A stretch of DNA of 64,000 bases, from the NCBI GenBank assembly GCA_046045965.1, contig JBJOKS010000007.1, positions 112,307 to 176,306 of the forward strand, in the 5' to 3' direction. Positions 54,938 through 64,000 of the stretch are shown piece by piece. The DNA comes from Cyanobacteriota bacterium. GTDB taxonomy: Bacteria > Cyanobacteriota > Cyanobacteriia > Cyanobacteriales > Nostocaceae. The notes beneath the pieces were generated by a model that saw only the letters and a list, made by a program, of their open reading frames with translations, was not told the origin of the DNA and ran no database searches. Positions within the stretch are counted from its first letter, which is position 1. Each line of letters opens with the position of its first letter. Made by a program: the position numbers and the translations under genes.

Positions 54938-55822
54938 TTATTTTACCCTTTCCCCTAACTTATTCCATAATTCCAGAGGAGAAATTAGACTAAGACCTGA
55001 AAATTGACCATCTCCTGTTTCAATTACTATCCATTCTCCACTTTTTAACTGTCCAATATCAACGGCAATGTAAGGAACTTGTAAACGTTGAGAAGCGAGA
55101 ATTGCTAAATTTAATACCTGTTCTTCTTCCGCTGTTGACAATTTACTTAAATCATCTTTACTATCCCAATAATAGCCATATTTGAGAACTTGATGATTAT
55201 AAATAAAACATCTAAATTCTCTGCCCATTGGAAAACCATTAGGAGCAAGGCGTTGATATCTGAGATTGACTAATTTTCTGATAATAATTCGACCTCTTGC
55301 AGCATATTTGAACTTTAATAACTTGGTTGTTAATTCTGTCAATTCTTGTAAATTATTAGCTACACAAGATTTCCAACCTTGCTGTTTTCTAGATTGAATT
55401 GCACCTTTAACAAATACAGGAAATCCTAATAATTCACTAGCTTTAATGCACTCATCTGTTGAAGTAATAATCACACTTTCCGGTGTTAACCCTTGTAGAA
55501 GGGGATAAAACATATCAAATTCCTGTGCTATTTGATGTTGTGAAGGATTATTCAGTAATTTGATTCCCTTGTCTAAAGCTGCTTGGTATATCGCTTGATA
55601 TCGTTCTAATTCTGGGATATATCCTACCCAAATTCCCTGAGTTCCTTCAGCATATTTGGGAATATGCCATAGTGCATTTTCGGCTGTACCACATTCTTGA
55701 AAATCTGAAGGGATATAGTAGACTTTAAAACCCAATAATTGGGCAGTTTCAGTCATTAATTTATTTTCTTTAGCACTGCTAGATCGTTCTTTTTGTTCTG
55801 CTGCTTCACTAATAACAATCAT
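54938..55822 (-). CDS. ATP-grasp domain protein (R2K clade / DUF4343-like)
   Basis: PVFVKG..SRK, REFRCF, YIAVDIGQ...GEWIVIE.GDGQFSG. Confidence 0.8.
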   Translation of the reverse strand: MIVISEAAEQKERSSSAKENKLMTETAQLLGFKVYYIPSDFQECGTAENALWHIPKYAEGTQGIWVGYIPELERYQAIYQAALDKGIKLLNNPSQHQIAQEFDMFYPLLQGLTPESVIITSTDECIKASELLGFPVFVKGAIQSRKQQGWKSCVANNLQELTELTTKLLKFKYAARGRIIIRKLVNLRYQRLAPNGFPMGREFRCFIYNHQVLKYGYYWDSKDDLSKLSTAEEEQVLNLAILASQRLQVPYIAVDIGQLKSGEWIVIETGDGQFSGLSLISPLELWNKLGERVK

Positions 55823-55896: not shown

Positions 55897-57078
55897 TTAA
55901 CCTTTAACGCACATAACCTGTTTAAGAGTTGCTACCACTTCTACTAAGTCTGCTTGGTTTTCCATGACTTGCTCAATGGGTTTATAAGCGCCGGGAATTT
56001 CATCTAAAACTCCTGCATCTTTACGACATTCTACACCTTTCGTTTGTTCGATTAAATCATCAAGAGTATAGACGTTTTTTGCTTTATTCCTTGACATTAA
56101 ACGGCCTGCACCATGACTACAGGAGCAAAAACTATGAGCATTTCCTTTACCTTTGACAATGAAAGATTTTGCTCCCATTGAACCAGGAATAATGCCATAA
56201 TCTTCTGTTTGAGCGCGGACTGCACCTTTACGAGTGACATAAACATCTTCGCCAAAATGTACTTCTTTTTCGGCGTAGTTGTGATGACAATTTACCTCTA
56301 ATAAAGGTTTAGTTACTTTCCCACCAACTAGATGTTTTTCGACGATTTTTTTAAATCTCGCCATCATCACATCACGGTTAAAAAGTGCGTAATTTTGCGC
56401 CCATTGTAAGTCTTCCCAGTAGGCTTTAAATTCTGGTGTTCCAGCGACAAAATAAGCTAAGTCTGGATCTGGTAATTTCTCACCTGCCATTTTTGCGAGT
56501 TGTTTGGCTGTGTCAATATGACATTGGGCTAATTTATTACCAATGTTTCTGGAACCGGAATGCAACATTAACCAAACTTGGTTTTCTGTATCAAGACAAA
56601 TCTCGATAAAATGATTTCCTCCACCGAGAGAACCCATTTGTTTCATCGCTTTGCTTTCTAAGTCTTGCACTCCCCGATGCAAGTCTTTAAATGAGCGCCA
56701 TTTCTGCCAGTTAGTTACAGCTTTTTCTACTTCTTTATTTTCATTAAATCCTGTAGGAATTGCTGCTTCAATATCGAGGCGAATTTTCTTTAGTTTACCT
56801 TCTAATTGTTCACCTGTAAATGGTGTTTTTATGGCACACATACCGCAACCCAGATCTACGCCGACAGCCGCAGGGATAATGGCTTCTTTGGTGGCAATTA
56901 CTGAACCAACTAACGCTCCTTTTCCTAAGTGAACATCGGGCATTAAGGCAACGTGTTTAAAGACAAATGGCAAAGATGCAACATTCTTGGCCATTTTGGT
57001 TTCATCTGAGCCTAAAGAATGATTTGCCCAAGATAAAACAGGTGATGGGGTGTTAATTCCTAATTGTTCGTAGGGCAT
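55897..57078 (-). CDS. rtcB: RNA ligase RtcB
   Basis: MPDVHLG, VGVDLGCG, GSLGGGNHFIE, HSGSR, HHN, RKGA, PGSMG, SHGAGR. Confidence 0.96.
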   Translation of the reverse strand: MPYEQLGINTPSPVLSWANHSLGSDETKMAKNVASLPFVFKHVALMPDVHLGKGALVGSVIATKEAIIPAAVGVDLGCGMCAIKTPFTGEQLEGKLKKIRLDIEAAIPTGFNENKEVEKAVTNWQKWRSFKDLHRGVQDLESKAMKQMGSLGGGNHFIEICLDTENQVWLMLHSGSRNIGNKLAQCHIDTAKQLAKMAGEKLPDPDLAYFVAGTPEFKAYWEDLQWAQNYALFNRDVMMARFKKIVEKHLVGGKVTKPLLEVNCHHNYAEKEVHFGEDVYVTRKGAVRAQTEDYGIIPGSMGAKSFIVKGKGNAHSFCSCSHGAGRLMSRNKAKNVYTLDDLIEQTKGVECRKDAGVLDEIPGAYKPIEQVMENQADLVEVVATLKQVMCVKG

Positions 57079-57367
57079 AGTAAAAATTCAAAAATACAAA
57101 GTCAAAAGTCAAAAATATTTTAATATTGCAGGTATGTTTTAAATCATAGTTTTAGATTCTCTTAACTCAATACTACAAAAATACTACATTAAATTTTATC
57201 TGTCAACTTGTCAGAATAAAAAACCTAGATCCTCAGCGGATGGGAGAAGTGGGGGTTATTTTCGGCTCTGTGGTAAGATATTTAGGGTTTTGCCAGCATC
57301 AATGCACACCAAAATGGGTAATAATCATTGGTGAGGATATTACTTCTTCAGTTTTTGGCATAGTGGC

Positions 57368-58096
57368 ATGAGTTTAAAGGCAGTTTTATTCGATTTTAAT
57401 GGTGTCATCATCAAAGATGAGCCAATTCACCTACAATTGATAGATGAGATTCTATTGCAGGAAAATTTGCAACCGCAAAAGCTGCATGAACGTCAAGCTT
57501 GTTTGGGAAGGAGCGATCGCGCTTATTTTCAAGACTTGCTCAAAAATCGTGGTAGAGTAGTGACGGAACAATATTTAACTCAGTTGCTACAACGCAAAGC
57601 TGAGGCTTATTTGCTGGAACTGGAGAAGCTGGAAAAACTGCCTTTGTATTCAGGAATAGAAGATTTAATTTTTCAGGTGCGATCGCAACATCTTCAACTC
57701 GGTTTAGTTAGTGGTGCGTTACGTCAAGAAATAGAACCGGTGCTAGAACGTGCCAAACTGATTGAATACTTTCATGTTATTGTCGCAGGTGATGACATCA
57801 ACACCAGTAAACCCCAACCAGAGGGTTATTTGCTGGCTGTAGAGAAATTTAATCAAGCCTACCCAGAATTAAATCTGCAAACTCAGGAATGTTTAGCTAT
57901 TGAAGATACTCCGGCGGGTATTCACGCAGCAAAACGCGCTCAGATGCAAGTAGTGGGAGTTGCGAATACTTACCCGTTTCATATGTTGCAACGTCAAGCT
58001 AACTGGACAGTTGACTATTTGACAGAGTTGGAATTAGAACGGGTACAGGAAATTTTTTTGCAAAAAGATGTGAACAATATAAAGACTGAGTGTTAA
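57368..58096 (+). CDS. HAD-superfamily phosphatase
   Basis: FDFNGVI, KPQPEGY, AIEDTPAG. Confidence 0.9.
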   Translation: MSLKAVLFDFNGVIIKDEPIHLQLIDEILLQENLQPQKLHERQACLGRSDRAYFQDLLKNRGRVVTEQYLTQLLQRKAEAYLLELEKLEKLPLYSGIEDLIFQVRSQHLQLGLVSGALRQEIEPVLERAKLIEYFHVIVAGDDINTSKPQPEGYLLAVEKFNQAYPELNLQTQECLAIEDTPAGIHAAKRAQMQVVGVANTYPFHMLQRQANWTVDYLTELELERVQEIFLQKDVNNIKTEC

Positions 58097-58112
58097 AATA
58101 GGATGTGATCAA

Positions 58113-58185
58113 GGGGAATTAGCTCAGTTGGTAGAGTGCTGCGATCGCACCGCAGAGGTCAGGGGTTCGAGTCTCCTATTCTCCA
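58113..58185 (+). tRNA. trnA: tRNA-Ala(CGC)
   Basis: GGGGAAT/ATTCTCC acceptor stem with G3:U70; CTGCG-ATCGCAC-CGCAG anticodon arm; GGTTCGAGT T-loop. Confidence 0.95.
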
Positions 58186-58276
58186 TTAATCAAACATTTT
58201 GACTATTCTATAGTGTAACATATCTTGTGGGGTGGGCATCTTGCACCCTAACTATATATATTCAAACATACACAAA

Positions 58277-58519
58277 ATGGCAATCAAAAAAAGTGAACTT
58301 TACAGTTCTTTATGGAAAAGTTGCGATAAACTACGGGGAGGAATGGATGCTTCTCAATATAAAAACTATGTCCTAGTTTTATGATTTGTTAAATACGTAT
58401 CTGATAAATATGCAAATGCGGAAGATGCACTTATAGAAATACCCCCAGGGGGCAGTTTTCAGGATATTGTTAACTTAAGTGGTGGTAGAGCAGCCAGTGA
58501 ACCTCCTGGTGGTAAATAA
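58277..58519 (+). pseudogene. hsdM: Type I restriction-modification methyltransferase HsdM, 5' remnant with internal stop and foreign tail
   Basis: MAIKKSELYSSLWKSCDKLRGGMDASQYKNYVLVL*FVKYVSDKY...IEIPPGGSF; TGA at 58382. Confidence 0.85.
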
Positions 58520-58812
58520 AGATAATAGATTTTGCAACATCAGCGAAAACTCAAAAATCGACGATGTGAGTTAACATTCAACACTTCTGTCCTAAATTCA
58601 CTTGAGATAAAACTCTGAAAATTCCATAATGGCTTTTAGAGATAGTTATTTTTTGGCTCTACAGTTGTGCAAACTGTAGGATGAATATCAGCAAAATTGC
58701 GGAATAATAGCGTAGTTAAATGAAGTTTTGATGAAGATGATATTTTCCTCTTGCTTTTGTGTTGATTGTTAAATTACTATACTCATAAGTTACATCCTGA
58801 AAAAAAATTACC

Positions 58813-58971
58813 ATGAAAACCCTTAACTATAGCCAACTCAACCTAGAGCAAAAAGAACAAGTCAACAATTTAATTGCACAAATGGAAGGTCAACAACAAA
58901 ATAGCAACTCTGCTGTTCGCTTTGTTGCTCGTGGTGGTCGGGGTGGTGAGTTTGGTGGTGTCCCTATATAA
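58813..58971 (+). CDS. Putative RiPP-like precursor peptide, 52 aa
   Basis: MKTLNYSQLNLEQKEQVNNLIAQMEGQQQNSNSAVRFVARGGRGGEFGGVPI*; directly upstream of and co-oriented with the HExxH gene. Confidence 0.65.
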   Translation: MKTLNYSQLNLEQKEQVNNLIAQMEGQQQNSNSAVRFVARGGRGGEFGGVPI

Positions 58972-59051
58972 TGAGAAATGCGTTTGATTCAACCATGAAT
59001 TACTTATGGATTAAGTAACTGTTGAAGCTTACGTTGTTTCTCTACAGTCAT

Positions 59052-59087
59052 TTTACCCCTTTCCATTTATGTACGGAGAGGGGTAAA
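59052..59087. terminator. Stem-loop between the precursor-like ORF and the modifying enzyme gene
   Basis: tttacccctttcc...ggagaggggtaaa. Confidence 0.5.
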
Positions 59088-59237
59088 TAAAGTAGAACTT
59101 TGGTGGAGTGAGGTAACTCAGGATTAATGGGTAATTGATAAAGTTCAATATAATTAATGTCATGCCCTTATGACAGGATTTGTGTGTTAATTTGACACCA
59201 ATAATCCGTATAATATGAAAATATCAAAGCAAAGTTA

Positions 59238-62200
59238 TTGTATAAATTTTATAGAGCAAATGTAATGTCAATCCACCCAGATATAGACATGAAAATAGGT
59301 GAACAACAGGATAAAATTGGTCAATCAAGTTTTTTTTGGACTGATACGAAACTATTTGATGATCGTCAAAAGCAGAATATTAATACATTGATTGCTATAG
59401 AACAAGTTCTGATGCGTCACCCTAAATTTGAGGGTTATCAAGAAGACATTGCAGAGATTCAAGAATTTTTAGAAATTTATCATCAAATTGCCACAGAAGC
59501 ATCAGAAAAGTTTACCTTAATCTGGTCAGATCCTTTTGCTTATCACTGGTGTCAATTAGCATTTGATTTAGTCACAGCAACCCTGACCAAGAAATCTTTA
59601 CCCCTTGTTACTCAAGAATATTGTCAGGCAATTCAACAAAAAACTCCCATTCAAGCACTAATTACTCACCTGAATCAGTTTAAGTTATTTGCGGTTGCCT
59701 ATGGTTTTCTGTCTCAGCAAAGTTATCAATTTAAAACTCCTTTAACTTGTCACTTACCACTAGCAATTCCGGGTACATCTCTTTATTTAGAAGGGAAGGG
59801 AAAAATAGAAATTTATGGTATTAACTCGGAAAAATTAGAACTTTTAGTCACAAATAATCAACAACCCCTAGCATTAATCCCAAATGCCACATTAACTGAA
59901 GATAATTTGCAAGTGGGACAATGCCCAACAATTCAACTTCCCAGTCGAGAATTACGATTTCAGCCTTATTGTTTTAATTCTCCAGCTTTTCCAGATGGTC
60001 AAGCAGTTGTTGAAGCAGGAATGACCTATCAGGGGCAATATGTCACCCTGGTAAAAGAGGGATTAACACTGATTGAGCAATATCATCCTCAAACTTTTGA
60101 GCAATTGCATTATTTTATGCAGTTATTGGCTCTCAAACCCGTCAACATTGGAACTTTTACCAACCTCAGTAGCTCAGATTTTTCTGGAGCTTTAATTTGT
60201 AGCGTGATTGAAAATCCCTATAGATTAGCTGATAACTTCATTCACGAATTTCACCACAATCGTCTATTCTTAATTGAACAAAATAATCCCCTGTTGTTGG
60301 AGTCAGTTGAAGACGGTAAAGCTAACAATTTGTATTATTCCCCTTGGCGTTTTGATTTGCGTCCCCTAAGAGGGATTTTCCATGCTATATATGTATATAC
60401 ACCCGTTGCTCAGTTCTGGTTAAATGTTTATCGAGCAAATCCCACGGGGGAACTTTTAGACTTTACCAAAAGCCAACTGATTAAAATTCCTTTACAACTG
60501 CAAATTGGGCTGGAGCAATTACGCAAATACGCGAAATTTACCCCTGTGGGTCAGGATCTTTTTCATGAATTAGAAAAACAACTTGCTCAAATTAAACAAG
60601 ATATTGCTCAACTTCAAATTCCCTTAGATGTTCCAGACTTAGACTTTCAACCAAATGGATCTTTCATTTATAATCTCCGCGCTGGAACAGCCCAATTCTT
60701 AACAGTTAAAGAAGCAATATTAAATCACATCAAGGGTTTTGATTATTTTGAACAAATAGATATTCAATTACAAACAAGTTTAGGTTTAGAGCAATTTTCA
60801 CATAACAGAATAGAAGAAAAAGCACCAGCGATCGCCTATGGGGAAAGATTAACAGGAGATTTTGAGGTTGTATCTTCCCTAGCAGAAACCTTAAAACAAA
60901 AAATTGACAGATTTGGTGACAGCAAACTCATTGATTTAAAGGAAAATCAAGGACTAACTCGCACCTATGGCGACCTTTGGCAACAGTCAACAACCTTACT
61001 TAGTTACTTGCAAGCACAAGGTTTATCTCCTGGGGACTTGATCATCATTCATTTTGAATATTGTCATGATTTTGTAGCAGCGGTTTGGAGTTGTTTTTTA
61101 GGTGGTTTTGTCCCCGTACCAGTGGCAATTTCTCCCTATAGTTCTCATGTATCTGCCCAAAATACTAAACTGCAACAGGTATGGCAAGCATTAGATCATC
61201 CTGTAATTCTCACCACAAAGGATCTGACATCTAAAATTAACAATATTCTTAAAGATTCAACACCCAACTTACTAACTATTGAAAAATCCCCAGAATTTTC
61301 TCCCAGTCAGAATTTTCATTCCCATCAACCTGAAGATTTAGCTCTATTACTCACCAGTTCTGGTACAACAGGTAATCCTAAACTGATTTCTTTTGATGCT
61401 GTCACAGTTCTGAGTCAATTTCTCTCAGAGAATCAGAAATCTCAGTTTTCCGATTGTTTCTTGACTTGGATTCCTTTTGATAATGCGTCAGGATTTGGTA
61501 TCGTCAATCCGACACCAGGTAAAACCCTTTATTTGCCAGCAGAACACTTTTTTGGAAAACCTATACTTTGGTTGGATATTGTTGATCAATACAAAGTGAA
61601 AAAAAGCGTATTGACTAACTTTGCTATGACAAAGATCACAGAGCAAATTCAGCAAATTTCCCAACCTGACTGGGATTTGACCTCTATCCAAACCATTGGT
61701 TTAGGTGCAGAAAAAATAGTTCCTCAAACTTGTCGTTCTTTCTTACAGACTTTACAACCATTAGGATTAGCTTCAGATGTTCTTAATGTTGCCTATGGTC
61801 TTTCTGAAACGGGAGTTGTGGCCAGTAATCGTGAATGGATAACAATGGGTTATGACCAGCGTAACGAACAATTTGTGCAAATTGGTCAGCCTTTACCGGG
61901 TTGTGGAATTCGTATTGTTGATGATGAAAATAATTTACTCAATGAGGGTGAAGTTGGTCATATTCAGATTTGGGGTGTAAACAGAACTGGTGTTTATTAC
62001 AACAATCCAAGGTTAAATAGGACGCTTTTTACAGAAGATGGTTGGCTCAATACTGGAGATTTAGGATTTCTCAATCGCAATTACCTCACTGTGACAGGAC
62101 GAGAAAAGGAGATTGTTATTATCAATGGCAAGAATTATTCCTGTCAAGAAATTGAATTAGTGGTCGAAGCAGTTGGGGGAGTTCAACCTTCTTACACCAT

Positions 62201-63557
62201 TGCTTGTAACATTCGACAAAACAACAGCAATACTGATGAATTAGCTATTTTCTTCCACACATCAACTACAGAAGACAGTCAATTATCCCAATTAGTCAAA
62301 CAAATCCGGGGAAAAGTAACTCAAACCCTGGGCATAAATCCGAATTATATAATTCCTCTTGATCAAGAGGCAATTCCTAGAACTTTAACTGGGAAAATTC
62401 AACGCTTGCAACTCAAACAGCGTTTAGAAAATGGTGAATTTAATACCATAATTGAACGAATTGATGCACTGAACCAAAAAACATTAGAACATACTTATGT
62501 CTCTCCTCGCAATGAATTAGAACGCCAACTAACTCAGATTTGGGAAAACGTTTTGGGAGTCCAACCGATTGGAATTTATAATAATTTCTTCGACTTGGGA
62601 GGACAATCTCTGTTAGCAGTTACACTGTTGGCGGAAATTGAAAAAACTTTTCAGAAAAATTTACCTTTAGATGCTCTGTTTCAAGCCCCAACCGTTGCCA
62701 AACTAGCAAATATTTTATCTCAACAGGAATGGTCTTCATCTTGGTACTCATTAGTGCCGATTCAACCCATAGGTGATAAAATACCCTTGTTCGCTATTCA
62801 TCTTCTTGGTGAAGGTTTAAGTTTTTACCGACCTTTAGCAAATTATCTGGGTTTGAGACAACCAATTTATGGGTTAAGTTATGGATTAGCAGCAAAAACA
62901 GCGAATGACAAAGAAGTTTCTCTACCTCCTACTAAAGATTTAGCTGCTCACTACATTAAAGAAATGCAAGCCTGTCAGCCCCAAGGACCTTATATACTAT
63001 TGGGTGTGTCTAATGGAGGAAATGTAGCCTTTGAAATGGCAAAACAACTTCATGCACAAGGTGAAATAGTTGCCAAATTAATTTTGTTTGATACCGTACA
63101 TCCAAATGTTAAGTTTCCCCCAAACTGGAACAAGATGTCTAGTTTACAAAAATTCACTTTAGATTTGATCCGACACATTAATATTCATTGGGGAAATATT
63201 TTATTATTAGAATCTAAAGAGAGGCTACCTTACTTCCTAGAAAAAGTAAAAATTTTATTAACTAAGTGGCTACCCCAAGTTCCTCAAAAATTATCTATAT
63301 CTAATGTTAATAAAAAGCAAGAAAAAATAAATTCTCCATCTGTACATCCTCAACCCTATATACCAGATTCATATCCGGGTAAAATAACTCTTTTTAAAGC
63401 TAAACATACACCTATAACATCTTCTGATCCTACAAATGGATGGGAAGGTGTAGCTGAAGAAGGGCTTGAGATTTATAATATTCATGGCGCTCATAGTAAG
63501 ATTCTCTCAGAACCTAGTGTACGCATCTTAGCTGAAAAAATGAAGACTTGTCTATAA
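59238..63557 (+). CDS. HExxH-domain (aKG-HExxH-like) / adenylation / carrier / thioesterase fusion protein
   Basis: IHEFHHNRL...YYSPWRFDLRPLRGIFHA; TSSGTTGNPK, YGLSET, TGDLG, PRTLTGKIQR; FFDLGGQSL; GVSNGG...GAH. True start may be ATG 59265 or 59289. Confidence 0.88.
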   Translation: MYKFYRANVMSIHPDIDMKIGEQQDKIGQSSFFWTDTKLFDDRQKQNINTLIAIEQVLMRHPKFEGYQEDIAEIQEFLEIYHQIATEASEKFTLIWSDPFAYHWCQLAFDLVTATLTKKSLPLVTQEYCQAIQQKTPIQALITHLNQFKLFAVAYGFLSQQSYQFKTPLTCHLPLAIPGTSLYLEGKGKIEIYGINSEKLELLVTNNQQPLALIPNATLTEDNLQVGQCPTIQLPSRELRFQPYCFNSPAFPDGQAVVEAGMTYQGQYVTLVKEGLTLIEQYHPQTFEQLHYFMQLLALKPVNIGTFTNLSSSDFSGALICSVIENPYRLADNFIHEFHHNRLFLIEQNNPLLLESVEDGKANNLYYSPWRFDLRPLRGIFHAIYVYTPVAQFWLNVYRANPTGELLDFTKSQLIKIPLQLQIGLEQLRKYAKFTPVGQDLFHELEKQLAQIKQDIAQLQIPLDVPDLDFQPNGSFIYNLRAGTAQFLTVKEAILNHIKGFDYFEQIDIQLQTSLGLEQFSHNRIEEKAPAIAYGERLTGDFEVVSSLAETLKQKIDRFGDSKLIDLKENQGLTRTYGDLWQQSTTLLSYLQAQGLSPGDLIIIHFEYCHDFVAAVWSCFLGGFVPVPVAISPYSSHVSAQNTKLQQVWQALDHPVILTTKDLTSKINNILKDSTPNLLTIEKSPEFSPSQNFHSHQPEDLALLLTSSGTTGNPKLISFDAVTVLSQFLSENQKSQFSDCFLTWIPFDNASGFGIVNPTPGKTLYLPAEHFFGKPILWLDIVDQYKVKKSVLTNFAMTKITEQIQQISQPDWDLTSIQTIGLGAEKIVPQTCRSFLQTLQPLGLASDVLNVAYGLSETGVVASNREWITMGYDQRNEQFVQIGQPLPGCGIRIVDDENNLLNEGEVGHIQIWGVNRTGVYYNNPRLNRTLFTEDGWLNTGDLGFLNRNYLTVTGREKEIVIINGKNYSCQEIELVVEAVGGVQPSYTIACNIRQNNSNTDELAIFFHTSTTEDSQLSQLVKQIRGKVTQTLGINPNYIIPLDQEAIPRTLTGKIQRLQLKQRLENGEFNTIIERIDALNQKTLEHTYVSPRNELERQLTQIWENVLGVQPIGIYNNFFDLGGQSLLAVTLLAEIEKTFQKNLPLDALFQAPTVAKLANILSQQEWSSSWYSLVPIQPIGDKIPLFAIHLLGEGLSFYRPLANYLGLRQPIYGLSYGLAAKTANDKEVSLPPTKDLAAHYIKEMQACQPQGPYILLGVSNGGNVAFEMAKQLHAQGEIVAKLILFDTVHPNVKFPPNWNKMSSLQKFTLDLIRHINIHWGNILLLESKERLPYFLEKVKILLTKWLPQVPQKLSISNVNKKQEKINSPSVHPQPYIPDSYPGKITLFKAKHTPITSSDPTNGWEGVAEEGLEIYNIHGAHSKILSEPSVRILAEKMKTCL

Positions 63558-63566
63558 AACCCAGAA

Positions 63567-63845
63567 GCTAAATGGGAAAAAATCATAGGTGTAAATATTA
63601 ACTAATGGGGAATAAAAACCATGAAAACAAAATAGGGAACTTGCAATATACAAGCTAAACGCATTTGGTTAAATTTAGAACTCGCAAAAAAACCTATTCA
63701 TTGCTTAGAATATTTAATAGTCCATGAAATTACCCACCTGTTAGAACGCACCCATAACGCTAAATTTCAAGCTTTAATGGATCAACTTCTACCAAAGTGG
63801 TGAGAATATAAAAAAGAATTAAATAATTTGTTACCAAAAACGTAA
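63567..63845 (+). pseudogene. M48/YgjP(DUF45)-like metallohydrolase, 3' remnant
   Basis: KWEKIIGV...MKTK*GTCN...RIWLNLELAKKP.HCLEYLIVHEITHLLER; three in-frame stops and one frameshift. Confidence 0.85.
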
Positions 63846-63980
63846 CCAAACCAAACTTGTATTTAGACAATGCCAAACTATCAATAGGGGTTGAATCTCC
63901 CACATATCTTAGTAACTGTTAACTGTTAAAAGTTGACCGTAGATATTAATTGATTGATTTTTTTGAGGAGTGTACATCTC

Positions 63981-64000
63981 ATGTCTAAAAACACCTTATC
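63981..64000 (+). CDS. Probable start of the next gene (partial)
   Basis: GAGGAG RBS followed by ATG at the window edge. Confidence 0.4.

Follow-up and report, generated by a model that had tools for sequence, protein, structure and literature searches.

What does a polypeptide act on, and what would it make, when an oxygenase of the type that modifies ribosomal peptides is joined to an adenylation (A), a carrier (T) and a thioesterase (TE) domain on one chain? Such a gene lies near the end of the cyanobacterial DNA analysed here (the window, 64,000 nt), and our literature searches found no description of an aKG-HExxH enzyme fused to A-T-TE. The features of the cassette are collected in Table 1.

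Architecture and conservation of the fusion enzyme

The ORF (59238..63557, + strand) encodes 1439 aa when counted from a TTG codon; alignment with 10 orthologues places the conserved start at M10 (ATG at 59265). The first-pass annotation had named HEFHH at residues 336–340, a stretch ending in H382, S1124 in GGQS, S1258 in GVSNG and a C-terminal His, and each was located as stated, the H382 stretch being YYSPWRFDLRPLRGIFH at 366–382. The HMM searches that it had proposed returned all four domains above their cut-offs, namely the NCBIfam model TIGR04267 "aKG-HExxH-type peptide beta-hydroxylase" (residues 272–445, profile positions 1–177 of 177, 93.6 bits with a cut-off of 40, E 1.4e-26) and Pfam AMP-binding (residues 566–921, 121.9 bits, cut-off 29.9), PP-binding (1097–1158, 52.2 bits, cut-off 20.8) and Thioesterase (1183–1432, 79.1 bits, cut-off 26.4). 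A Condensation domain, which it had reported as missing, was not detected in the ORF by the Pfam search at E<=0.01. S1124 is invariant across 11 orthologues, as are the TE residues S1258 and D1285 among the orthologues, and H1419, which lies in the C-terminal GAHS of the TE, occurs in every orthologue sequence that reaches that far.

Membership of the N-terminal region in the aKG-HExxH family was borne out by HMM, motifs and predicted fold. Using phmmer, residues ~30–505 align end to end with free-standing HExxH proteins of ~480–500 aa; judged from this alignment, the oxygenase is residues ~30–505 and hence larger than the 177-residue TIGR04267 core. Among 80 aligned family members HEFHH is nearly invariant, and Y, S, P, W, R, R, G and H of the YYSPWRFDLRPLRGIFH stretch are invariant or nearly so. 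The HExxH part matches ChlH (8S5F) in sequence with E 1.9e-16, the YYSPWRFDLRPLRGIFH stretch being alignable, and Foldseek with an AF2 model of the oxygenase part (pLDDT 90.5, pTM 0.91) retrieved only five chains at E<=0.001, these being SjiH (22OB) and four chains of 8S5F (ChlBH HExxH domain). The earlier remark that the family usually accompanies radical SAM maturases is only partly apt, since 143 of the 150 closest representatives are short free-standing proteins. The best identity with a free-standing homologue is 43%.

The first-pass annotation had allowed that the fusion might be unique to this assembly. We found the architecture conserved across genera, in eight protein clusters and at eleven other loci (L004–L009 and L024–L028) from Okeania, Trichodesmium/Dapis, Crocosphaera/Microcystaceae and freshwater metagenomes; AMP-binding, PP-binding and Thioesterase were all present in 8/8 protein matches in the 791–2519-aa length band. 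Contigs of two RNA libraries cover the precursor and enzyme genes, with one RNA-library contig over the precursor gene at 58801–59049, and DNA and RNA-library contigs of other samples span the domain junctions, e.g., X3 (58906–61720) and X5 (58906–63565). That the gene is an assembly chimera, or a functionless relic in decay, might be suspected from its position in a variable island, just 443 bp short of where a contig stops and beside a broken hsdM. However, the recurrence of the fusion in independent clusters and other loci, the open frame with all catalytic residues invariant, the junction-spanning contigs and the confirmation of the contig join by a same-genus genome make this barely credible, and for practical purposes we regard it as refuted.

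The precursor-enzyme pair occupies a variable slot after a tRNA-Ala gene. Same-genus genome G107 keeps HAD-tRNA on one side and SIMPL-SSB-MreB on the other, with 4.2 kb of different genes in between, and same-genus genome G160 has 84% identical DNA at the place of the hsdM remnant, within which a 50-aa ORF (58232–58384) matches Pfam HsdM_N positions 3–28 of 135 (28.6 bits). Since no flanking genes besides the pair were common across lineages in the loci compared, the pair itself is the unit. The earlier statement that the cassette has no radical SAM enzyme, protease, transporter or PPTase holds in the window flanks and in C63, the contig that comes next and shares 127 nt with the window end. 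In the precursor-enzyme spacer of relatives, another palindrome occupies the same relative place as the 13-bp stem-loop.

Table 1. Positions in the window of the features of the cassette and its left edge
Feature	Position	Strand	Basis
tRNA-Ala(CGC), left edge of the variable slot holding the cassette	58113..58185	+	ARAGORN
Type I restriction-modification hsdM remnant, broken frames	58232..58520	+	Pfam HsdM_N match, sequence reading
Precursor-type peptide gene, 52 aa, MKTLNYSQLNLEQKEQVNNLIAQMEGQQQNSNSAVRFVARGGRGGEFGGVPI	58813..58971	+	Homologues upstream of orthologous enzyme genes, alignment, complex model
13-bp stem-loop in precursor-enzyme spacer	59051..59088	+	RNAfold, -20.2 kcal/mol
Fusion enzyme gene, HExxH oxygenase-A-T-TE	59265..63557	+	ORF, domain searches, orthologue alignment
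Full-length aKG-HExxH oxygenase part, residues ~30–505, with N-terminal helical subdomain	59325..60752	+	phmmer, AF2, Foldseek
HEFHH metal motif (H336, E337, H340)	60243..60257	+	Motif position
YYSPWRFDLRPLRGIFH, residues 366–382, last residue H382	60333..60383	+	Motif position
Adenylation domain, residues ~566–1057	60933..62408	+	Pfam/NCBIfam, core motifs
Carrier (thiolation) domain	62526..62711	+	Pfam; Ser1124 attachment site in GGQS (62598–62609)
Type I thioesterase domain (S1258 in GVSNG, D1285, H1419)	62784..63533	+	Pfam, motifs

The upstream precursor-type peptide

Our principal new finding is about the ORF of 52 aa that precedes the enzyme gene. The first-pass annotation had mentioned it as a possible partner; by the comparison of loci it is a co-conserved precursor-type peptide, and complex modelling puts this peptide into the HExxH site. 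Homologues stand upstream of the enzyme gene in 10/10 loci with upstream DNA, in 1–3 copies each (L007 and L008, which lack upstream DNA, are excluded from the count). The peptide consists of a leader (~1–34), an invariant VRFVARG segment (35–41), an invariant G45-E46 and a variable tail; the 17 copies aligned likewise show a conserved leader, VRF[VI]ARG, a variable spacer, invariant GE and a hypervariable tail. Residues L9, Q13, L20, A22, G26, Q27, V35, R36, F37, A39, R40, G41, G45 and E46 are invariant throughout, Gly45-Glu46 being the sole invariant residues within the otherwise hypervariable part, and the C-terminal residue is free to vary (I, N, R, S, L, V, F, G, Q, A). The family had no match in Pfam or NCBIfam.

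When the HExxH part was modelled in complex with the 52-aa peptide and Fe, the score was 0.89 (0.89, 0.89 and 0.87 in three runs; 0.02 for the best of three controls), a mark that 116 of 157 solved complexes attained, as did 2 of 215 mismatched pairs. This score expresses the model's own confidence only, and it was obtained with alignments that we had made ourselves and with a metal ion riding along, both of which lie outside the calibration. The pLDDT of the partner was at least 69, and at least 64% of the contacts were common to the runs. Peptide residues 2–26 contact the N-terminal helices of the enzyme, and residues 34–44 and 46 contact domain residues 328, 331, 361–363 and 373, which are E337, H340, W370–F372 and H382 in ORF numbering. 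As modelled, the leader would thus dock on the N-terminal helices with VRFVARG..E in the HExxH site.

Adenylation domain, thioesterase and possible product

The A domain has the core motifs SSGTTGNPK, YGLSETG, TGDLGF, GREKEIVIINGKNY and PRTLTGKIQR (K1053), together with a clade signature, PFDNASG, and Ala750 at the Asp235-equivalent position. This Ala is aligned with V227 of McyG, which is described as corresponding to GrsA D235 (PMC11253843). The nearest solved relatives are StsA (6ULW/6ULX, alpha-ketoisocaproate-selecting; E 3.7e-96) and McyG (4R0M; E 5.7e-91). The A domains of the fused clade form a separate lineage with a stem branch of 0.53 changes per site (SH-aLRT 100), and this long stem, together with their own invariant P[FLC]DNASG, suggests a changed substrate. 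The top NCBIfam names were FAAL or long-chain ligase models (PRK09192, 199.7 bits); an FAAL identity was rejected because this score is far under the curated cut-off of 600 and solved FAALs, at E about 1e-35, are much remoter than StsA and McyG.

The T-TE of the fusion shares 75–78% identity with its counterpart in free-standing A-T-TE proteins (P0162–P0164, P0160) and 74.6% with the one in a C-A-T-TE module (P0183), and the Trichodesmium/Dapis fusions carry a different T-TE, which shares 85.6% identity with that of P0174, a free-standing A-T-TE. On these identities, the T-TE part is swapped between lineages. Since free-standing A-T-TE proteins and an ordinary C-A-T-TE module have the same T-TE unit or one nearly identical to it, the TE looks generic and not visibly specialised for a peptide acceptor; of a TE that recognises such an acceptor, one might expect lower exchangeability.

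We tentatively favour the reading that the cassette is a minimal two-gene biosynthetic unit in which a leader-bound peptide is oxidised and then O-acylated from the carrier domain. The conserved leader helix would dock on the N-terminal helical subdomain and place the invariant VRFVARG...GE segment in the Fe/2-oxoglutarate HExxH site, where a residue of this segment would be oxidised, most likely by beta-hydroxylation to judge from the family, with Phe37 and Glu46 both guesses for the target. The A domain, for its part, would activate a carboxylic acid other than a standard alpha-amino acid and load it onto Ser1124, steps for which the domains are present; the acyl group may then pass to Ser1258 of the TE and on to the peptide, which is bound to this very chain. 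The likeliest acceptor is the new hydroxyl, which would make the product an O-acylated (depsi-type) ribosomal peptide. Genes in other parts of the genome would provide for leader removal, export and phosphopantetheinylation; a search of the host genome (92.2% complete) found no PPTase. In this O-acylation reading we infer the identity of the acid, the modified residue and the role of the TE. Its "hydroxylate then decorate" logic gains indirect support from group-transferring fusions of HExxH-subfamily relatives, as P0105 and P0128 are fused to GT2 glycosyltransferases and P0027 to a cyanophycin-synthetase/Mur-ligase-like enzyme.

The O-acylation reading is weakened by the fact that aKG-HExxH family members also cut backbones: PflC and PosC are reported to cleave oxidatively before the Ala-Arg of a conserved ARMD motif, of which the Ala is the critical determinant (PMC12636437), and in our peptides Ala39-Arg40 is invariant in 17/17 and lies inside the modelled active site. 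The HExxH domain could, in place of hydroxylation or in addition to it, abstract the alpha-hydrogen of Ala39 in V-A-R-G and cut the backbone, so that the leader leaves as a C-terminal amide and a 2-oxoacyl-capped core is modified elsewhere by A-T-TE, a course that would suit the finding that no cassette examined encodes a protease. We consider it unlikely, as the likeness to ARMD is just two residues long, an N-terminus of the 2-oxoacyl type has no amine that could be acylated, and the six C39-peptidase ABC transporter matches of the host genome could process leaders.

Gly45-Glu46 receive no role from O-acylation alone, and only one of the models considered explains them, a graspetide-like ring made by NRPS machinery: the A domain would activate a carboxylate of the peptide (the Glu46 side chain or the C-terminus), and the TE would close the thioester-bound peptide into a macrolactone on the hydroxyl made by the HExxH domain. 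The carboxylate-activating class of the enzyme fused in P0027 and the changed substrate suggested for the A domain would agree with such a ring. It is nevertheless quite unlikely, as loading of a peptide side chain onto a carrier domain is not known to us from any ANL adenylation domain, the nearest solved A-domain relatives are described as binding small acids, and the freely varying C-terminal residues argue against recognition of the C-terminus. The peptide might also not be the substrate at all; A-T would then load a small acid, the HExxH domain hydroxylate it on the carrier and the TE free a beta-hydroxy acid. Beta-hydroxylases are classically paired with a condensation-less A-T-TE whose TE is hydrolytic, NikP1 (A-T-TE) with NikQ, or BpsD/OxyD/Bhp, reportedly being precedents for on-carrier hydroxylation, and the T-TE unit here is common to ordinary NRPS contexts. 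We hold this to be improbable in view of the precursor gene at every locus with upstream DNA and the whole N-terminal subdomain retained by the HExxH part, the leader dock in the model; moreover, the aKG-HExxH enzymes characterised in the reports cited all act on ribosomal peptides (PMC12636437; PMC13060819; PMC12707348).

Relation to known systems

The product of fusion and precursor is probably a new kind of decorated ribosomal peptide. The oxygenase part shares the family HMM, the HExxH and SPWR..R..H motifs and the predicted fold with the aKG-HExxH oxygenases ChlBH (8S5F), SjiH (22OB), PflC/PosC, BpmH/BipH and PesO. Members of this family are reported to modify leader-bearing ribosomal peptides at His, Asp, Phe, Gln and Pro, in addition to oxidative backbone cleavage (PMC12636437; PMC13060819). 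StsA and McyG, as described, are like the fusion A domain in having a non-Asp residue at the GrsA-D235 position. Unlike it, they belong to assembly lines for depsipeptides or microcystin, in which KR or KS/C domains come next; the fused clade has Asn for His in its own signature, followed by a 3-residue deletion, and its long stem branch. Likeness to FAAL is limited to the best NCBIfam names, which score below cut-off.

Condensation-less A-T-TE enzymes are known as "NRPS-like" from quinone and furanone synthetases and NikP1. The free-standing cyanobacterial A-T-TE proteins (P0162–P0179) have these three domains in identical order, with T-TE units 75–86% identical to those of the fusions, but are without an HExxH domain, and the fused-clade A domain is a well-supported lineage apart from theirs. 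Lipolanthines and goadvionins are ribosomal peptides acylated with fatty-acid, polyketide or carrier-protein machinery, and acylated-RiPP systems of this kind employ separate GNAT-type acyltransferases for N-acylation of amines. Selidamides and lipoavitides are likewise described as ribosomal peptides bearing acyl groups from non-ribosomal machinery (PMC8784127; bioRxiv 10.1101/2023.10.25.564083). In contrast to these systems, the putative transferase here is a TE on the same chain as the oxygenase, A domain and carrier, and the proposed acceptor is a hydroxyl that the enzyme itself would make.

The fusion gene and its oxygenase part

The first-pass annotation had described a gene whose product joins an HExxH domain to adenylation (A), carrier (T) and thioesterase (TE) domains without a condensation domain, and the Pfam calls for the last three, all well above their cut-offs, bore this description out. 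Every motif that it had listed was located at the expected residues: HEFHH at 336–340, YYSPWRFDLRPLRGIFH at 366–382, S1124 (GGQS), S1258 (GVSNG) and H1419; D1285 and K1053, the lysine of A10, are present too. No Condensation domain (PF00668) was detected in the fusion enzyme at E ≤ 0.01 (Pfam), and the same tool was positive for the relative P0183; with no condensation domain, the enzyme is not a canonical NRPS elongation module. Residue numbering follows the first-pass annotation, with codon 1 at 59238; alignment with ten orthologues placed the conserved start at Met10, an ATG at 59265.

Features of the peptide–enzyme cassette (window nucleotide positions, or residues of the fusion enzyme where so marked)
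Feature	Position	Strand	Description	Score
Precursor-type peptide ORF	58813–58971	+	52 aa	
Fusion enzyme ORF	59238–63557	+	open frame, 1439 codons counted from TTG	
TIGR04267, 'aKG-HExxH-type peptide beta-hydroxylase'	residues 272–445		NCBIfam, profile 1–177 of 177	93.6 bits, cut-off 40
AMP-binding, PF00501	residues 566–921		Pfam	121.9 bits, cut-off 29.9
PP-binding, PF00550	residues 1097–1158		Pfam	52.2 bits, cut-off 20.8
Thioesterase, PF00975	residues 1183–1432		Pfam	79.1 bits, cut-off 26.4

Membership of the N-terminal part in the aKG-HExxH family (TIGR04267 / IPR026337), as first suggested from the motifs, was confirmed by the agreement of the HMM match over the whole profile, the motifs and the predicted fold. 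Residues H336, E337, H340, S368–R371, R375, G379 and H382 are invariant across 11 orthologues, and among 80 family members each is either invariant or conserved to 90% or more. A phmmer search with residues 1–540 against 1.84 billion representatives returned 2343 matches at E ≤ 0.001; among the best 150 of these, 143 were proteins of at most 520 residues, and the full-length relatives (~470–520 aa) spanned query residues ~30–505 with identities of up to 38%. Further HExxH relatives with up to 43% identity were identified using a word-indexed search. The N-terminal half of the fusion enzyme is a complete HExxH oxygenase. Its solved relatives by sequence are the HExxH domain of ChlBH (8S5F, E 1.9e-16) and 22NU (E 2.1e-9). 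The AlphaFold2 model of this part, built from 80 aligned sequences, had a mean pLDDT of 90.5 and a pTM of 0.91, and Foldseek matched it to five PDB chains only at E ≤ 0.001, namely SjiH (22OB; E 1.7e-12, TM by target 0.70) and four chains of 8S5F (E 3e-10, TM by target 0.63), the next matches being M1 aminopeptidases at E > 0.1. Papers retrieved under the name SjiH were all unrelated. C-beta hydroxylation of His, Asp, Phe, Gln and Pro is reported for members of the family in passages of one article (PMC13060819), and PflC and PosC perform oxidative backbone cleavage at ARMD (PMC12636437).

Besides the A-T-TE form, six proteins of more than 600 aa were present among the best 150 of the 2343 matches (P0027, P0047, P0055, P0077, P0105 and P0128): three carry an N-terminal DUF6065, two have GT2 glycosyltransferase domains, and the remaining one has Mur-ligase M and C domains behind a cyanophycin-synthetase-like N-terminal domain. 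Judging from these domain arrangements, the joining of an HExxH oxygenase to a group-transferring or carboxylate-activating enzyme is a recurring theme, which fits a strategy of making a handle and then decorating it.

The fusion was sought in other assemblies, as the first-pass annotation had advised, and proved to be real and conserved, with eight protein clusters and eleven loci. A search with the N-terminal part among proteins of 791–2519 residues identified the eight clusters (1274–1444 aa, 62–85% identity), all of which possess AMP-binding, PP-binding and Thioesterase domains; the named sources are Okeania hirsuta, Trichodesmium sp., Crocosphaera sp. and a Microcystaceae cyanobacterium. 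DNA scans localized orthologous loci to Okeania (L004, L005, L008), Dapis (L006), cyanobacterial MAGs (L007, L009) and five metagenome contigs (L024–L028). The fusion gene is rare: of 401 genomes sampled across the phylum, two matched its HExxH part, namely the source genome and one with a weak match of 27%, and the gene is absent from two other genomes of the same genus. Matches to the A-T-TE part were obtained in 27 of 301 genomes of the order, all of them to an A or A-T part inside larger ORFs, and the free-standing A-T-TE protein P0174, used as query, matched 7 of 251 genomes of the family, by the A part only except for the source genome's own gene. None of these searches (401 genomes of the phylum, 301 of the order and 251 of the family) yielded a close free-standing A-T-TE or HExxH locus.

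The precursor-type peptide and its setting

Homologues of the 52-aa ORF were found by tblastn directly upstream of the enzyme gene in 10/10 loci with upstream DNA, a count from which L007 and L008 were left out, both beginning inside the enzyme gene. There are 17 copies in all, one to three in tandem per locus; the loci are partly non-independent (L025 and L026 resemble L006, and L027 resembles L028), still representing at least five lineages. Alignment of the copies revealed that the N-terminal ~34 residues are well conserved and that V35-R36-F37-x-A39-R40-G41 constitutes an invariant motif (VRF[VI]ARG); a spacer of ~1–13 residues is followed by an invariant Gly-Glu and then by Phe, Met or Val, and the tail beyond Gly-Glu varies in both length and sequence. 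RiPP precursors are characterized by a conserved leader, a fixed recognition motif, a variable core and gene multiplicity. Since the copies display each of these features, the 52-aa ORF can be regarded as a co-conserved precursor-type peptide with the attributes of a RiPP precursor. It matched no family in Pfam (E ≤ 0.01) or NCBIfam (E ≤ 0.001), and hence no described leader family such as NHLP or Nif11; the ESM Atlas gave no usable match, and no second copy was found in the source genome. Hydroxylation of a Gln run, as in PflC/PosC, was considered and is not favoured: QQQ is found in most peptides, yet Q27 alone is invariant, and the run is missing from freshwater and Microcystaceae peptides.

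The complex prediction took as input Fe, the HExxH part with its alignment of 80 rows, and the peptide with 16 rows of alignment A3. Three runs scored 0.89, 0.89 and 0.87, and the best of three controls scored 0.02; in a calibration run without user alignments or a riding metal, 116 of 157 solved complexes reached the mark set for this score, as did 2 of 215 mismatched pairs. The partner pLDDT was at least 69, and at least 64% of the contacts were common to the runs. In the models, peptide residues 2–26 pack against the N-terminal helices of the enzyme, and residues 34–44 and 46 contact E337, H340, W370–F372 and H382, among others. Searches of the PDB by sequence and by Foldseek turned up no solved complex of an HExxH-family member with a leader peptide, and it therefore seems unlikely that the docking score merely reproduces a known structure. 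The modelling supports, and does not show, binding of the peptide by the HExxH part with the peptide lying in the oxygenase site. Together with the co-conserved peptide gene, it is indirect evidence for a Fe(II)/2-oxoglutarate-dependent oxidation of a ribosomal precursor by this part.

The spacer between the two genes (58972–59264 in the window) has features of its own. About 45 nt right after the precursor stop are kept across loci (spacers of L004, L005, L006 and L024–L026; alignment A4) and are followed in the window by a strong stem-loop at 59051–59088; the spacers of relatives have a different palindrome, which occurs again ahead of the enzyme gene. These elements may act as an attenuator or stabiliser setting the precursor-to-enzyme ratio. 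A promoter and terminator scan of 58050–59400 gave 11 promoter-like sites, where 6.0 ± 2.5 were expected, and no terminators on the + strand; these counts are not informative.

Nine studies contributed fifteen public runs in which the stretch, or part of it, was detected, and any label that they bear is freshwater, aquatic or sediment; two of the fifteen may be the source sample, and two others are metatranscriptomic libraries containing 0.88 and 0.74 of the sampled words. When contigs of these two libraries were compared over 57300–64000, one from run X4 (58801–59049) covered the precursor gene and two from run X3 (58906–61720 and 61782–63145) extended from the 3' half of the precursor through the enzyme gene with no differences; contigs of this kind cannot prove transcription, transcript ends or levels. 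Two depth values are hints only, given that contig depths cannot rank genes and that an uncovered part proves nothing: the hsdM-remnant bin (58196–58419) had a depth of 0.14 and 0.2 in the RNA libraries versus 6.5 in a DNA run, and the 269-nt precursor contig of X4 had a word depth of 680.6 versus 13.1 for the next contig. Run X5 yielded a variant contig, from a related strain in another sample, that departs from the window most densely in the codons of the peptide core and tail (58935–58968); its indels added and removed three bases in total, with the reading frame kept overall.

Upstream in the window lie genes for a pyruvate dehydrogenase E2, a Kef-type antiporter, an ATP-grasp protein, RtcB and a HAD hydrolase, a tRNA-Ala(CGC) and a broken hsdM. 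The window ends with its contig; the contig that follows, C63, shares 127 nt with this end and leads on to SIMPL, SSB, MreBCD and RibD. In G107, a genome of the same genus, HAD–tRNA and SIMPL–SSB–MreB are found in identical order with 4.2 kb of other genes between them, which confirms the join of the window contig to C63; because the intervening genes differ, the cassette is seen to sit in a variable slot after tRNA-Ala(CGC). The G107 slot (L056, contig C12, 934–5125) contains EAD8-trypsin, EAD8-FGE-sulfatase and DUF4041/T5orf172 genes, which look defence-related. In the source genome the slot carries the broken hsdM (tRNA and remnant together at 58113–58520) plus the cassette, and G160, also of this genus, has hsdM-like DNA there (L057).

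Around nine loci, no accessory gene (protease, transporter, rSAM or PPTase) was common to them. The flanks of the other loci vary by lineage, and a downstream FAD-dependent oxidoreductase is confined to loci of the Dapis/Trichodesmium type (L006 15095–16207, L007 4429–5655 and L025 9092–10201). The precursor and enzyme pair is the whole conserved unit. A C39-peptidase ABC-transporter search gave six matches in the source genome, on other contigs. The 393-aa RtcB (55897–57078, − strand) matched the NCBIfam model of an intein-containing relative in two stretches (843.5 bits, cut-off 1050) and reads as an intein-less version of that relative; an R2K-type ATP-grasp gene (54938–55822, − strand) adjoins it.

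Adenylation, carrier and thioesterase domains

As expected of an NRPS-type adenylation (ANL) domain, the core motifs A3, A5, A7 and A8 and the lysine of A10 were located in the A domain and are invariant in orthologues. The closest PDB chains are those of StsA (6ULW and 6ULX, E 3.7e-96 and 2.7e-95) and McyG (4R0M, E 5.7e-91). Passages of a review describe StsA as the one crystallised A domain that selects an alpha-keto acid, and McyG as crystallised with Phe-AMP and carrying V227 at the position of GrsA D235 (PMC11253843). Ala750, which is invariant in orthologues, aligns with McyG V227 (HMMER alignment), so the A domain is without the canonical anchor for an alpha-amino group. An amino-acid-activating A domain was not supported, in that TIGR01733 scored 108.2 bits versus a cut-off of 317.4 and that no Asp is found at the GrsA-235 position. 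The best-scoring NCBIfam names were those of FAALs or long-chain ligases, with no score above a third of the cut-off (PRK09192, 199.7 versus 600; PRK05850, 119.9 versus 775); the FAAL reading was likewise set aside, StsA and McyG being much nearer than the solved FAALs (only ~1e-35).

A quick IQ-TREE maximum-likelihood tree was inferred from 46 A-domain segments of at least 420 aligned residues (P0001–P0010 and P0160–P0200). The ten fused proteins grouped in a single clade with an SH-aLRT of 100, its stem being long at 0.53 changes per site. P0165 and P0182 are the sisters of this clade, and the free-standing cyanobacterial A-T-TE proteins have their main clade elsewhere in the tree. The motif P[FLC]DNASG is found in the fused clade alone, with PLDH at that place in relatives.

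S1124, the GGxS serine of the carrier domain, is invariant in orthologues. A PPTase (PF01648) was not matched in the source genome, which is 92.2% complete; since every bacterium needs one, the missing match carries no weight. The TE triad S1258, D1285 and H1419 is present, and the PDB relatives of this domain include the TE domains of AB3403, SrfA-C, EntF and Pks13. Compared with the window's protein, the Trichodesmium/Dapis orthologues are 84–85% identical in the HExxH part and 81–82% in the A domain, but just 46–48% in the carrier domain and 31–53% in the TE. The T-TE of these orthologues (the proteins P0004 and P0006 and the gene at L006:10025–14317) is 85.6% identical to that of P0174, a protein named for Okeania sp. 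SIO2B3. The T-TE encoded in the window (62463–63554) is 75–78% identical to that of the free-standing A-T-TE proteins P0162–P0164 and P0160, and 74.6% identical to that of P0183, a C-A-T-TE protein. The drop in identity, together with the matches elsewhere, shows that the T-TE is an exchangeable unit and was replaced by recombination at least once; the TE type is not peculiar to the HExxH-A-T-TE fusion.

Possible chemistry and relation to known systems

The domains with their catalytic residues and the conservation of both fusion and peptide are established, and the docking model is a confident one. We propose that the HExxH part would oxidise a residue within the VRFVARG..GE segment of the precursor, in view of the C-beta hydroxylation reported for the family in passages of PMC13060819, that the A domain would load a non-amino acid onto S1124, and that the TE would pass this acyl group to the peptide, where the newly made hydroxyl is the simplest acceptor. 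This joint reading, which develops the hydroxylate-then-acylate idea of the first-pass annotation, is the one we lean towards, at a little under an even chance. Oxidative cleavage of the backbone in front of Ala39-Arg40, of the kind that PflC and PosC perform at ARMD (PMC12636437), would draw on the same invariant motif and is an unlikely alternative. Slightly further down we place activation of the peptide's own Glu46, or of its C-terminus, followed by TE-mediated ring closure; the Glu of Gly-Glu is invariant.

Hydroxylation of a small acid bound to the carrier, with subsequent hydrolytic release, is improbable. That the fusion is an artefact is very improbable indeed; it recurs in the eight clusters and eleven loci. 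The remaining probability is assigned to chemistry not yet thought of.

Whether the enzyme is the founding member of a new hybrid class, in which a ribosomal peptide held by its leader would be oxidised and then esterified or cyclised in cis by A/carrier/TE chemistry, is in our judgement evenly poised. If so, it would be the first case of RiPP tailoring through a phosphopantetheinyl carrier and TE on the leader-binding enzyme's own polypeptide (~1430 aa), and two genes would suffice for the whole pathway, the peptide cores being hypervariable in nature. Acylated or depsi-type peptides could then be made by a compact and programmable route, since the core is open to change and so, in principle, is the specificity of the A domain; the natural precursor variants already distinguish fixed positions (VRF[VI]ARG, GE) from free ones. 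Full-text literature searches found neither an HExxH oxygenase fused to A-T-TE nor this precursor family described, and the network analysis or supplements of the ChlBH paper (Nature Chemistry, 2024) might mention such fusions. The finding also extends the range of partners known for aKG-HExxH enzymes, a family recognised only recently.

As a rule, ribosomal and non-ribosomal routes to peptides do not mix. To our knowledge, transfer in the few RiPP/NRPS hybrids described is the task of separate transferases; one enzyme that recognises a gene-encoded peptide via its leader and adds an acid chosen by its A domain would be new. The known kinds involved are RiPP tailoring by aKG-HExxH enzymes and the hybrid acylated RiPPs, and there is a real chance that the system, set beside them, is the first of a class of its own.
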